Origin: Eledone cirrhosa
Taxonomy: Eukaryota
DNA: 51,120 nt
Reading direction: 5' to 3'
Assembly: GCA_964016885.1 (NCBI GenBank)
Contig: CAXHJY010000657.1
Location: 1 to 51,120, forward strand
Shown: positions 12,412 to 45,999 of the stretch, piece by piece
How positions within the stretch are numbered: the stretch's first letter is position 1
Layout of the letters: each line of letters begins with the position of its first letter
Made by a program: the position numbers and the translations under genes
The notes under the pieces: generated by a model
What the model was told of the DNA's origin: nothing
The model's input: only the letters and a program-made list of their open reading frames with translations
The model's database searches: none

Positions 12412-12830
12412 ATAATATAAGATCAAAAGATGGTTAAAGGAGTTCCATGTATTTTATTATGCGCATTTCAAAAACAAACATCATCATGCAATAATATTTG
12501 TGTTTTCACCAGATAAAATAGGAGAACATGATATGGAGGCTAAAAAACACTTGTGGATAGTGCAGTTTTAAATCAACATGTTGATTTAAAACTGCACTAT
12601 CCACAAGTGTTTTTAAGCCTCCATATCATGTTCTCCTGTTTTATCTGATGAAAACACAAATATTATTGCATGATGATGTTTGTTTTTGAAATGCGCATAA
12701 TAAAATACATGGAACTCCTTTAACCATCTTTTGATCTTATATTATGCATACTCCAGTGCTACAAACTGTAGAGTGCTTCTTATCCGATATCTGCATTGCT
12801 TTATTGTACTACAATAAAACTCACCTCCTA
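12412..12830 (+). mobile_element. Fold-back (palindromic) Penelope-type pLTR insertion with hammerhead and 3' tail
   Basis: Spacer-less palindrome 12412-12745 (167-bp arms, centre AACA|TGTT at 12578/12579, a few mismatches). Unique tail 12746-12830. (TA)n on both sides. Confidence 0.8.
12637..12707 (+). ncRNA. Minimal type I hammerhead ribozyme
   Basis: Stem I TGTTTTAT/ATAAAATA; CTGATGA 12645-12651; long stem II hairpin; GAAA 12688-12691; palindromic stem III ATGCGCAT; cleavage triplet AUA. Confidence 0.85.
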
Positions 12831-13482
12831 CATATATATACATATATATATATATATGTATATATATGTATATATATGTATATATATATATATATATATA
12901 CATATATATATATATGTATATATATATATATATGTATATATATGTATATATATATATATATATATACATATATATATATATGTATATATATGTATATATA
13001 TATATATATATATACATATATATATATATGTATATATATGTATATATATATATATATATACATATATATATATATGTATATATATATATATATGTATATA
13101 TATATATATGTATATATATGTATATATATATATATATGTATATATGTATATATATGTATATATGTATATATATATATATATATATATATATGTATATATA
13201 TATATATATGTATATATATGTATATATATGTATATATATATATATATATACATATAAATATATATGTATATATATATGTATGTATATATATGTATATATA
13301 TGTATATATATATATATATACATATAAATATATATGTATATATATATGTATGTATATATATGTATATATATATGTATATATATATGTATATATATATGTA
13401 TCTATATATGTATGTATATATATGTATATATATATGTATATATATATGTGTATATATATATATATATATATATATATATGTA

Positions 13483-16190
13483 TAACTTTCATAACTTTGA
13501 TAGTTTTCGGCCAGTATTGGCCCAGGCCATGTCTAACTTTATAGCACCACCTGGAGAAGTCTTACAAATCAGTGTTTGGGCACCATGGCTCACTCGAGCA
13601 AAGAGTTATTGTTTACGGAGCATATCCGGGTGCAGGAGGCTTATCCGGTATTTCTTGAAGGAATTTATCCAAAGACTTCTTGAATTTGATGGATTTTGTC
13701 TGCTTTGATGTGTTTTGGTGTAATGTTAAATAGTGCAGGGCCAATTGAGGTAAAATAATTGTGCCGTATTGTTGTCATGTGATGCGCGTGGGATTTTTGT
13801 CGTGGGCGGATAGCATGGGGCCCAAGCCTTGTGTGTACACTAAAAGTGATGCCAACATCATTTGGGATAAGCTGATGGAATATTTTCCACATCATACAGA
13901 TAATGTAGCGCTCACGGCGACGTTGAAGACAATAAAGTTTGAGCTTTTCTAATCGACCCCAATAGTCAAGGCCTGTCATGCCAACTATCTTTTTTGTAAT
14001 TGACCTTTGGGTTGCTTCAACTTTCATGATACTTTGTTTCGTGTGGGGTGACCACAGTGGGCAACAGCATTCAAGGTGGGGTCGGGCAAAAGTGGAGAAG
14101 AGAAGGACAACAGTGTGGATATCTCTCGACTGGAAAGTTCTGAGAATCCAGCAACATATTCTGCGGGCCATATCAACTTTGCTGTTTATATGAGTGGCCT
14201 AGCTTATATTGTTGTCCACAATTACTCCCAGGTTTCTGATGGTATTGAAGCCACTAGAGTTTCACCCGAAGGAAGAGAGTATGGTAGTTTCAGGGCATCC
14301 TTTTTTCCAAAGTGAATTAGTTCAAATTTATCCTCATTCAACAGCATATTATTCATATCTGTCCATTGGATGACAGCCAGTAGGTCTGACTGAAGGCAAG
14401 TCCTGTCACCCACCTCATTGATGACTCTTTGGAGCTTGGAATCATCTGCGAAGATTCTGATGTTGCTGTGTTTGATGATGTCAGTAATGTCATTAATGTA
14501 GATGATGAAAAGAAGTGGGCCCAACACAGTGCCTTATGGGACGCCACTGCTGACTTTAGCAGGGCTTGATTTTACTCCTTCGACTACAAGTTGCTGGGTT
14601 CTGCCTGTCAGGAAACATTTGATCCACTGTAATAACCTTCCAAAGACACCAACATTGGATAGTTTTTTCAGTAGAATCTTATGATCAGCCCTGTCGAAGG
14701 CCTTGCTGAAATCATGGTAGATGACATCAGTGTTGGAGCCCTCTCCCAAGGCTCTCAAAACATCTCCAAAGTGATGCAGGAGCTGCGTTAGGCAGTCCCT
14801 TCCATTACGGAACCCATATTGGTTGGAGTTCAGCAGGCCGTTGCTTTCAAGAAAGTGGGTTATTCGTGATCTCACCACCCTCTCAAATACCTTGATAATA
14901 TGAGAGGTGAATGAGATCGTACGGTAGTTCACTACAAGGGACTTATTTCTCTTTTTGAAGACTGGGACGAAAGTTTTCAGGGATATAGCCAGTGTCCAGT
15001 GTGTTCCTCCACAGATTAGCAAGAGGAGTTGCAAGTTGGTGTCGACACACCTTCAGGATACAAGCAGGGAACATGTCGGGGCCAACTGCTGAATTGTGTT
15101 TAATTTCGTTTATTGCCGCTAAGACATCAGGGGCGCCAAACGTTATGTCTGATATAGTGTGTTGGGGGTTAATATCACTGATACGGCCCAAATCGGCTAT
15201 ATCAGCGTTGCTGAAAACAGCAGTATTGTTTCTGCAGTATCTCGCCCATGGTTTTGGCATTGTCCTGGAGTGTGCCATTTTCATCAACTAGGAGGCCAAC
15301 AGTGCAGACGGTGACCTTGTGTTTTTTAGCGAATGAGAAGAACACTTTGGGGTTGAGTTTGATTTTCTCAATGGCCCACCTCTCTTCAGCTATTCTCTTG
15401 TTATTGATGATGGTCATCATGCATTGCTGGAGGTTATATTTATTTGACTCAAGCAGGGTGATAGCCATTGAATGTGTGTGTTGCTGTTGGCAGTATTTTA
15501 GTGTGTTAATTTTTTTGTTTGTTCTTTTTATTTTTCTGATAATTGTTTTTCTGATTTGGGGGATACTGCACTTAGTTTTGTTCACAGGTTTTGGTGGGGT
15601 GTGTTTTGTACATATATTTGTGACAGTGTCTACAAAGATCTGCCAAGATGTTTTGATGTTGGTGGAAGTGTGTGCGTGTGTAAAAGACCAATCGACATGT
15701 GATAGTTCGTTCATAATTGCATCAGTTGGTCCATGTTATCAAATGGGTGGGCGGAGAGAGGACTCTGGGATTGGCTTTCGGCTGGTGGAATCTCAGCTTA
15801 CAAAGAACCATGTCATGGTCTGAGAGAAGGGTTTTTTCTACTGTAATATTATGTATAGTGTTAGTGTGGTTACTAAACACTAGATCCAGAATGTTCTTCT
15901 GGTTGCTTGTTGGTGCAAGGACAAGTTGTGACAAGAAAAACTCATTCATGAAGTCAAGAAGTGACTCGACAGCCTCTTTGTCAGTGGTTGTGGCTGTGGA
16001 GCCTGGTTTCAAACTACATGTACACCCATCGACACAGGGTAGATTAAAGTCTCCCATCAAAAGTATGTTGTTAGAATGGCACTGTTTGATAAAGCATTTA
16101 ATACTGTTGCGGCATTCTTTGAAACAGATTATGGGTGTTTGTGGCGGCCTATAGAGCCCACCTAATGTGAGGTCATTGGCTTTATTGTGC
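13483..16190 (-). mobile_element. Diverged, 5'-truncated LINE of family A with partial AP-endonuclease and RT; multiple frameshifts
   Basis: Minus-strand ORFs: GLYRPP...LMGDFNLP...ILDLVFSN...SDHDMV (APE, 15722-16192). RT fragments 14534-15034, 14222-14527 and 13665-14171 are homologous to 36-1747. Similar AAAGTTA tail. Confidence 0.92.
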
Positions 16191-17283
16191 ATATATATAT
16201 ATATATTATATACGCATATATATATATGTATATATATATATATACATATATATATATGTCTGCCTTTCCAAGTCTTTCTCCCTAAGAAATTTACCTTTTA
16301 TATATATATGCGTATATATATATATATATATATATATATATATATCATATATATCATATATATATATATATATATATATATATATATATCATATATATCA
16401 TATATATATATATATATATATATATATATATATCATATATATATATATATATATATCATATATATATATATATCATATATATATATATATATATATATAT
16501 ATATATATATCATATATATATATATATATCATATATATATATATGTATATATATGCGTATATATATATATATATATGTATATATATGCGTATATATATAT
16601 ATATATATATATATATATATATATATATATATATATGTATATATATGCGTATATATATGTATATATATATATATATATATGTATGTATATATGCGTATAT
16701 ATATATATATATATGTATATATATGCGTATATATATATATATGTATATATATGCGTATATATATATATATGTATATATATGCGTGTATATGTATATATAT
16801 ATATATATATATATATGCCTATATATATATATATATATATATATGCCTATATATATATATATATATATATATGCCTATATATATATATATATATATATAT
16901 GCCTATATATATATATATATATATATATGCCTATATATATATTTATATATATATATATATATATATATATATATATATATATGCCTATATATATATATAT
17001 ATATATGCGTATATATATATATATATATATATATATGCGTATATATATATATATATATATATATATATGCGTATATATATATATATATATATATATATAT
17101 GCGTATATATGTATATATATATATATATATATATATGCGTATATATATATATATATATATATATGCGTATATATGTATATATATATATATATGCGTATAT
17201 ATGTATATATATATATATACGCATATATATATATATATATATATATATATATATATATATACGCATATATAAGTATATATGCA
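16191..17283. repeat. (TA)n array with blocks of TC, GCG and GCC interruptions
   Basis: Direct reading. Confidence 0.95.
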
Positions 17284-17599
17284 TATTAATTAAATAAGCA
17301 TAGTTGAGTAAATTAAACTGACCTTTGAGAGAAAATGATGGCACTTCTTCCCGATAAATTTAAAAGTCGAAATGAAACCCGTAAAACGGTCCTAATATTT
17401 TCTGTCCATATATATATATATATATATATATATATATATATATATATATATATATATATATATATGGGGTGGGTGGGGGAGGGGAGATGGTGCATGTGTG
17501 TGAGTGTATATATATATATATGTGTGTGTGTGTGTCTTTTCATGCGCTTCTCTTTCGCAGCGTGACGAAATTTGTGGGGATGAGAAAGTCGAATATATC

Positions 17600-45170: not shown

Positions 45171-45236
45171 TATTTCATTATATATATTTCGGGGATATCA
45201 TATTAACAATATGCTATGCCTTCATCAGACAAAATA
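45171..45236 (-). ncRNA. Type I hammerhead ribozyme (left arm)
   Basis: Reverse complement of 45405-45470. Confidence 0.82.
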
Positions 45237-45404
45237 CAATATAAACAGTTTTATAGATAAATATATTCGACATACCGTAATAAACATCAACTTCATTTGA
45301 AGAGGTTTACTCTAGAGGTTTACTGCTAGAGTAAACCTCTTCAAATGAAGTTGATGTTTATTACGGTATGTCGAATATATTTATCTATAAAACTGTTTAT
45401 ATTG

Positions 45405-45470
45405 TATTTTGTCTGATGAAGGCATAGCATATTGTTAATATGATATCCCCGAAATATATATAATGAAATA
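45405..45470 (+). ncRNA. Type I hammerhead ribozyme
   Basis: TATTTTGT-CTGATGA(45413-45419)-stem II-GAAA(45451-45454)-TATATA-TA-ATGAAATA. Stem III palindrome ATATATAT. Confidence 0.82.
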
Positions 45471-45999
45471 AATATGGTTTTATAAATATAGTTTTCCATT
45501 TATTTAATATTGTAAATATACTCCAAATATTTGTCGAGTGCTTTTATATCAGTTATAAATATTTACTAGTTGTAACCCAACAATTTTAAATATAATTTTA
45601 CATGTATATATGTATATATATATATATATATGTATATATATATATGTATATATATATATATATATGTATATATATATATGTATATGTATATATATGTATA
45701 TATATATATATATATATATGTATATATATGTATATATATATATATATATATGTATATATATATATGTATATATATGTATATATATATATATATATGTATA
45801 TATATATATATATATGTATATATATATATATATATATATGTATATATATATATATATATGTATATATATATATATATATATGTATATATATATATATATA
45901 TATATGTATATATATATGTATATATATGTATATATATATATATATATATGTATATATACAATATTAAATAAATGGAAACTATAATTATAAAACCATATT

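Follow-up and report, generated by a model that had tools for sequence, protein, structure and literature searches.

The stretch analyzed here is contig CAXHJY010000657.1 of the Eledone cirrhosa assembly GCA_964016885.1 (51,120 nucleotides, called the window below), animal DNA made up chiefly of (TA)n-like tracts. It holds a broken open reading frame (ORF) of a Penelope-like element, with a reverse transcriptase (RT) domain and an endonuclease (EN) domain of the GIY-YIG type, and a set of short repeats that lie head to head as fold-backs. These elements are best explained as dead, 5′-truncated insertions of several Penelope-like families of the Hydra clade. In most of the fold-backs, a bulged stem-loop starts 4-5 nt past the last base that the tail-less arm shares with the other.

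Fold-backs with a one-sided tail

The repeats were inventoried by self-BLAST of the window after microsatellite masking. Nine fold-back remnants of pseudo-long terminal repeats were found (A, B, C, D, E, F, G, P22, and P30), each having one tail-less arm; they represent eight families without mutual similarity, as P22 and P30 both belong to family P. The same search recovered two further pieces of family P, another copy of B, and several repeats in direct orientation (Table 1). The original prediction, that one arm ends before a tail kept by the other, was borne out in 9/9 fold-backs, and an inverted, 5′-truncated copy tailed on one side is a feature of EN+ Penelope-like insertions. The tails range from 26 to 169 nt and are mostly 76-169 nt long (C, 26 nt; G, 34 nt), and the four P tails share one end point. 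Short families A, B, D, E, F, P, and J all show an insertion preference for (TA)n; their flanks are themselves (TA)n and would mask target-site duplications. The tail-less arm of each fold-back enters (TA)n directly, with the exception of E and P22, which meet each other. At 22430, the tail-less ends of E and P adjoin with a 1-nt overlap and no intervening (TA)n, indicating that one element took the end of the other as its target.

Table 1. Penelope-like features of the window.
Feature	Position	Strand	Details
Family A fold-back	12415..12745		Self-BLAST; no spacer; left arm tail-less at (TA)n
Family A hammerhead	12645..12699	+	Descriptor; type I, core to predicted cleavage site
Family A tail	12746..12828	+	83 nt; bulged stem-loop 12750-12774
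Family J	19908..20710	-	Direct partial tandem; hammerhead 20162-20091
Family J stem-loop	20440-20416	-	Degenerate; past tail-less point
P20 (family P)	20770..20915	-	Copy with tail; stem-loop 20841-20818; mini fold-back
Family G	20999..21207	-	Old fold-back, arms 82%; 34-nt tail with ACTG, no partner; misfit
Family F	21399..21757	-	Tail 21530-21399; stem-loop 21525-21462, first pair broken; short tail-less arm 21727-21757
Family E	21781..22430	-	Tail 21898-21781; stem-loop 21894-21870, G-U first pair
Family E tail-less arm	22300-22430		270-nt spacer
P22 (family P)	22430..22634	+	Fold-back 22430-22556; tail 22557-22634; stem-loop 22562-22585, one pair broken
Family P tail-only piece	22663..22727	-	From (TA)n to inside stem-loop
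Family C	29928..30344	-	Fold-back; 26-nt tail with upper-stem-like hairpin 29947-29930 and TT
P30 (family P)	30614..30730	+	41-nt fold-back; tail 30655-30730; stem-loop 30660-30683
Candidate family K	31012..31036	+	Lone full stem-loop match, ~50 nt before (TA)n; no mirror arm
Family D	36201..36763	-	Fold-back 36370-36763; tail 36369-36201; stem-loop 36364-36292, long inner insert
Family B	45127..45598	+	Fold-back 45127-45514; tail 45515-45598; stem-loop 45520-45539
Family B hammerheads	45413-45462 and 45228-45179	+ and -	Descriptor
Second family B copy	45957..46136	-	92%; tail-less; hammerhead 46057-46008
Penelope-like ORF	47502..49042	-	Broken, 5′-truncated; RT 49042-48411; linker and GIY-YIG 48287-47502

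A strict descriptor for the type I hammerhead ribozyme detected five cores (in A, in J, and three in B) against 0.07 in shuffled sequences. Families C, D, E, F, G, and P fall below this descriptor, being partial by eye or truncated. In one case, P30, the fold-back centre is the base following a hammerhead-like GTC (judged by eye, 3′ half only).

Other element types were rejected. The terminal hairpin of a miniature inverted-repeat transposable element or a Helitron is ruled out by the asymmetric arms, the fold-back centres that vary between B copies, and the presence of hammerheads. For a non-LTR (long terminal repeat) retrozyme, with direct tandem units and a hammerhead in each, the only direct partial tandem is J, where the descriptor is passed by one unit out of two.

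Some centres and arms have features of their own. The P copies at 22493 and 20904 are two independent fold-backs at almost identical 5′ positions, which suggests a defined RNA 5′ end or a preferred jump site. The arms of D differ by a 25-nt micro-inversion (36476-36500, 36633-36657) inside the hammerhead-like region. At the centre of B (45300-45335), a 9-nt tandem duplication of arm sequence resembles RT slippage at the joint.

The window ORF aligns at 40-42% identity with the full-length RT-EN proteins P0001-P0003, in which the RT is followed by a C-terminal GIY-YIG domain; Pfam gave no match on it. Its alignments contain a CxCX5C linker, and CxxC and CxH around the conserved E and N, with no CCHH, in agreement with the definition of the Hydra clade. 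The N-terminal RWK and DKT motifs are present in the relatives P0002 and P0003, the window ORF being truncated at 49042. The B copy at 45961-46136 lies 1.37 kb from the ORF, and the intervening DNA has no real similarity to the arm. The original prediction had treated this copy as a Penelope body ending at the same point as the mirror arm. The shared end point holds (45131 in the mirror arm), while its assignment to the ORF is unproven, with 1.37 kb between the two; one record (record 13 of run X6), possibly a ligation chimera, joins the B tail to ORF-like sequence. Long spacers such as this one have precedent. The shared hairpin described below suggests that the short families belong to the Hydra clade. 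A degenerate hammerhead-like stretch at 47370-47335 on the minus strand, ~140 nt past the ORF stop, may be the pseudo-LTR (pLTR) of the ORF itself and not of family B.

A bulged stem-loop near the tail-less end

The motif at the start of the tails consists, in order, of RCTC, an upper stem, a loop, the other strand of the upper stem, a TN bulge, and GAGY, usually followed by RC. RCTC and GAGY pair as a basal stem, while the upper stem starts directly after RCTC and closes 2 nt before GAGY, with the loop free in length. The RCTC begins 4, 5, 5, 4, 5, 5, and 5 nt past the last base common to both arms in A, B, D, E, F, P22, and P30, respectively, that is, in 7/9 fold-backs and 6/8 families, and the flanks of these six families are unrelated. 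The same 5-nt spacing is found for the tail-less B copy at 45961. Thus a fixed end combined with a common motif in unrelated families, as originally predicted, was recovered, with the six named motifs (A, B, P30, E, D, and F) all in place; the partner of the F motif is GAGA at 21465-21462. The predicted ACTC...GAGT hairpin corresponds to the basal stem, and the 2-nt bulge and upper stem had been overlooked.

The bases shared by the two arms end in a TA-like patch, found at the junction of every family, so that microhomology only brackets the true junction; the ranges obtained by eye for each family overlap at 5-6 nt. Against the window background, a random unique position has an RCTC start within 0-9 nt with p=0.048, giving P=3.3e-7 for at least six of eight families, for a motif that was chosen post hoc. 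Five other inverted pairs lie outside the rule: a short interspersed element (SINE) pair at 28379-28804, the pair at 24731-25088, inverted long interspersed elements (LINEs), the P tail-to-tail pair at 22569-22727, and P20.

The 2-nt bulge on the 3′ side reads TT in five, TC in three, TA in two, and TG in two of the 12 hairpins. With this bulge, 47/48 upper positions are paired, and 22, 14, 14, and 30 are paired with bulges of 0, 1, 3, and 4 nt; three or four pair types occur at each position of the upper stem. In A, B, E, and P, already named when the upper stem came to light, 15/16 upper pairs form. The first basal pair is A-U in five, G-C in four, and G-U in one of 10 rows, A-U passing to G-C via G-U, and the second and third basal pairs are invariant. 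Over the 96 stem positions there are five G-U and no A-C pairs, which points to the sense strand as the one that pairs. The two half-sites are 12 to 65 nt apart. The loops of D and F carry long inserts, and the 2-nt-bulge register brings in both; it also adds two cases outside the earlier list, namely J (degenerate, in a direct tandem) and the lone K. The predicted fold is the hairpin in B, D, F, and K and in two loci from outside the window (L001 and L004), and partly in A.

Copies and relatives outside the window

A genome-wide view of end points was obtained from one read mapping, for family B only, on 45321-45604. This region recruited 2950 contigs of run X1 and 31,259 reads of run X11; X11 being restriction-site-associated DNA (RAD) sequencing and X1 contigs, these counts are not copy numbers. 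No difference of at least 4% was seen in either basal strand or in the first bulge base, the variable positions being 45511, 45515, 45518, 45528, 45530, 45531, and 45535. The largest group of loose ends among those listed (8054 reads) reaches the known junction and continues into (TA)n, and in its consensus the TA-like overlap extends up to 2 nt before the stem. Strand-switch joints were found at 45398 and 45494, so the 3′ end stays constant although the fold-back centres differ. Runs X5 and X6, labeled as other organisms, yielded two and three records, some near-identical to B and some with GATC junctions; these are possibly contamination or ligation chimeras and were not used as evidence of distribution.

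Seven metagenome loci (L001-L007) were collected by protein alignment. L001 and L004 have both a hammerhead and the hairpin, which was not found in L002, L003, or L005-L007. The full-length L001 carries the hairpin twice in its 5′ region, upstream of the ORF (2464-2487 and 2531-2556, stem-loops SL1 and SL2). The segment 2433-4965 of L001 is seemingly a unit-length Hydra element between direct repeats of 13-14 bp; it starts just before SL1 and ends at the tail-less point, as would a permuted copy made from an RNA that is circular or in tandem.

A pattern with the hammerhead only, run on prokaryote bins that evidently hold animal DNA, identified five loci with six ribozymes. Four of the five loci come from one bin and are therefore not independent samples of taxa. 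Five of the six ribozymes are tail-less, L009, L011, and L012 having tail-less ends only. L010 alone has a tail, and its hairpin lies 5 nt past the point where the mirror arm enters (TA)n; the spacing to the hairpin position is 5, 4, and 5 nt in L010, L011, and L012. The tail-less arm of L010 (565-1166, ~600 nt) is far longer than its tail arm (1170-1251, 82 nt, plus the tail). In L008 and L015, a tail-only piece stands head to head with a tail-less body, and the two arms share no sequence; their tails stop 3 or 10 nt short of the SL2 of L001, depending on the alignment. The hairpin pattern gave three matches in prokaryote contigs. L018 is the same place as L010, and the bacterial L017 and L019, with no hammerhead, were rejected as chance matches. 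Protein scans of viral and prokaryote contigs revealed no relatives, and nothing was found by the pattern scans of viral contigs.

By eye, the hairpin is present in 4/6 Hydra consensi in File S7 of PMC8557442. It occurs as an end hairpin in Hydra-2_Amil, Hydra-1_Ajap (twice, both at its start), and Hydra-2_Ajap, while Hydra-1_Crog has two variant hairpins, one in the 3′ tail and one, with a compensated GCCC/GGGC stem, 6 nt into the 5′ start. Five 8-mers taken from the hairpin's 3′ side occur at 24 places in the supplement of PMC8557442, of which four are Hydra hairpins and one is a Naiad fit; the remaining places look like chance coding matches. The Naiad consensus concerned (part 23 of the supplement) matches the bulged hairpin fully. 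The prediction of a conserved cis signal at a fixed distance is thus supported both in the window and by Hydra-clade loci outside it.

Models for the two ends

On balance, we favor a model in which a protein of the element binds the hairpin in RNA and starts reverse transcription ~5 nt 5′ of it, the insertions arising by twin priming. Of the three functions originally proposed (RT binding, nick site, stop site), RT binding is the best fit, acting on sense RNA as the G-U pairs of the stem suggest. The RT/endonuclease would bind the stem-loop in the sense RNA and use it as a ruler. The (TA)n DNA would be nicked and the cDNA begin ~5 nt 5′ of the stem, producing the tail-less arm, with the TA-like patch of 2-5 nt pairing with the nicked end and probably aiding the start. 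The opposite target strand would be primed from a second site, located at the tail's 3′ end, giving the arm with tail and hairpin. A template jump would then join the two cDNAs head to head, leaving palindromes with spacers of 0-7 nt or longer; where the two cDNAs run to a common RNA 5′ end, the centres would be symmetric. Priming twice, once on each target strand, accounts for all cases and agrees with the behavior of an anole element. For this Poseidon element, two internal RT start sites that flank the tail, and nicking and extension of both strands, were shown in vitro (PMC11167929).

Several points weigh against this model. Family C has a tail without RCTC/GAGY and only a 7-bp hairpin, the ACTG of the G tail has no partner, and the second arm of the P20 mini fold-back stops early, after ~13 nt. 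The predicted enrichment of the motif holds for position, whereas the excess of the descriptor over the whole window is modest (eight matches against a null mean of 1.98 and maximum of 7). The count of 47/48 upper pairs is partly circular, as the descriptor used to place D, F, J, K, L001, and L004 requires upper pairs. Basal pairs are broken in F, J, and P22, and the shuffle control for covariation, which ignores relatedness, gave 9/500. The hairpin is weak, and E and P30 are predicted to fold differently; a weak fold would be expected if a protein stabilizes it. The hammerhead descriptor is passed by A, B, and J only, and Rfam made no hammerhead call, giving sub-threshold chance matches only. 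For no short family does more than a single record (record 13 of X6) provide a tie to a Hydra ORF. Among the consensi, Hydra-1_Obim has a GCTC near its start with no partner seen by eye, and that of Hydra-1_Amil includes no tail. Finally, the anole start sites are reported in PMC11167929 as non-homologous to the target, and the RNA region shown contains no RCTC/GAGY stem.

The main rival, which we regard as unlikely but deserving serious attention, is that the GIY-YIG endonuclease reads the hairpin in DNA (as cDNA or extruded), cuts 4-6 nt before it, and trims the tail from one arm during resolution of the intermediate. Such trimming permits either arm to be the longer, PMC8557442 attributes tails to EN-mediated resolution, and earlier work cited in PMC11167929 reported the Drosophila tail to be required for EN recognition. 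However, the tail-only arms on tail-less bodies in L008 and L015 need two priming events, and the variable spacing between half-sites excludes a plain duplex site, so that the nick site of the original prediction is unlikely in a double-stranded version of fixed geometry. The G-U pairs without A-C favor the sense strand, which single-stranded sense DNA would also satisfy. The hairpin could instead serve the start of the 5′ untranslated region (promoter, translation, packaging), the end being set only by pairing of the TA-like patch with (TA)n. The patch at the junction of every family and the 5′ position of the L001 hairpins agree with this. We nevertheless find it improbable, as the arms hold many further TA-like patches and yet, in six families whose flanks are unrelated and in L010-L012, have no end points other than those 4-5 nt ahead of the stem.

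The third function originally proposed was a stop site, in which the tailed cDNA folds back and copies itself until the hairpin halts synthesis, leaving a tail-less second arm. Near-perfect palindromic centres are common (A, C, D, and P30), in P20 the tail-bearing arm seems the longer, as it does in E and F, whose spacer orientation was judged by eye, and self-priming is proposed in PMC3846280. A fold-back copy, however, can neither exceed its template nor be unrelated to it, and the proportions of L010 and the unrelated arms of L008 and L015 contradict the model as a general rule, as does the existence of lone tail-less copies (45961; L012); we consider it highly improbable. L010 likewise rejects the notion that the tail-bearing arm is always the longer. 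That AT-rich tails resemble each other by chance is barely credible. The motif was picked post hoc, a relaxed descriptor has 107 matches in the window, and bacterial chance matches do occur (L017, L019), but the positional probability, the fulfillment of the prediction in L010, and the same structure in consensi from three other phyla all speak against chance.

Returning to binding of the hairpin in RNA, a bolder version that we put forward only tentatively is that Hydra-clade RNAs carry SL1 and SL2 in tandem, each docking one RT of a dimer and fixing one start a few nt 5′ of itself. The tail would then be the interval between the two start sites, beginning with SL1 and ending just before SL2. 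The paired hairpins of L001 and of the Hydra-1_Ajap start, together with the two variant hairpins of Hydra-1_Crog, support this version. The ends of the L008 and L015 tails before the position of L001 SL2 suggest one hairpin per start site. No SL2 was clearly seen within the window. If true, the sister group of telomerase would possess a template register defined by structure, much as telomerase does.

The architecture of an inverted copy plus a tail is already known. The conserved bulged hairpin, standing at a set distance from the end, seems not to have been described: it was not found in the parts of the literature searched, including PMC11167929, PMC8557442, PMC7229834, PMC4209133, PMC3846280, and PMC13282606 (subscription papers lay outside this search), and the words hairpin, stem-loop, palindrome, and bulge have zero occurrences in the main text of PMC8557442. 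The insertion unit of EN+ Penelope-like elements (PMC8557442; PMC3846280) has, like the window copies, a head-to-head inverted copy, a junction palindrome, a tail at one end, a hammerhead in the pLTR (by the descriptor, in A, B, and J here), and microsatellite targets; the tails described there are 30-40 nt, compared with mostly 76-169 nt here, and the passages searched do not mention a conserved tail structure. The Hydra clade of PMC8557442 agrees in ORF motifs, (TA)n targets, canonical hammerheads, and the hairpin of the four consensi, and its main text describes neither the bulged stem-loop, its spacing, nor the tandem pair. The Poseidon element PAc of Anolis (PMC11167929) resembles the preferred model in the two start sites bracketing the tail, the nicking and extension of both strands, and stem-loop-linked initiation. 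It differs in belonging to another clade and in initiating inside an AC-rich stem-loop in the ORF, and cross-family conservation is not reported in the parts consulted. Non-LTR retrozymes (PMC7229834; bioRxiv 10.64898/2026.07.22.740005) are likewise short non-autonomous pLTR derivatives with type I hammerheads, and J shares their direct partial tandem; the window copies are mostly inverted monomers, and the accessible parts of these reports identify no mobilization signal.

How the tail and the inverted end of Penelope-like elements form is an open question, with only one element studied in vitro. A structure of ~25 nt that stands at a set distance from the insertion end, and is conserved here as well as in elements of a coral, a sea cucumber, and a copepod, offers a precise mutational target, and as a minimal cis signal it would explain how one machinery could be common to many unrelated short families. 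It may also serve as a marker for assigning ORF-less repeats to the Hydra clade, and it allows comparison with telomerase template definition. In the latter, as in the 3′ stem-loops of LINEs, a protein-bound RNA stem sets the copied interval at a fixed distance. The likeness is an analogy only, since the stem of the present elements is located 3′ of a start site that is internal to the mobile element's own RNA.

Other repeats accompany these elements. The direct partial tandem at 19037-19873 has GAAAC ahead of CTGATGA, the order found at the Naiad_Obim 3′ end, and is possibly a Naiad remnant; the bulged hairpin was not found in it. A decayed Helitron-like Rep/helicase remnant was seen by eye at 32300-35770, where three fragments had no Pfam match. 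Two LINE families (1-2041, 4475-6316, 6738-7088, and 13485-16185) have short tandem 3′ repeats and are inserted in (TA)n, one of them giving the sole Pfam match, RVT_1. The tRNA-derived SINEs at 28231-28804, 40447-40628, and 17614-17691 (A and B boxes by eye), which resemble an octopus repeat, occur in tandem, inverted, and solo, and end at TA-rich sites. Finally, two 612-bp elements that we take to be RTE-like (43991-44604 and 50169-50780) are 99.3% identical, lie within (TA)n, and flank the region of family B and the ORF.

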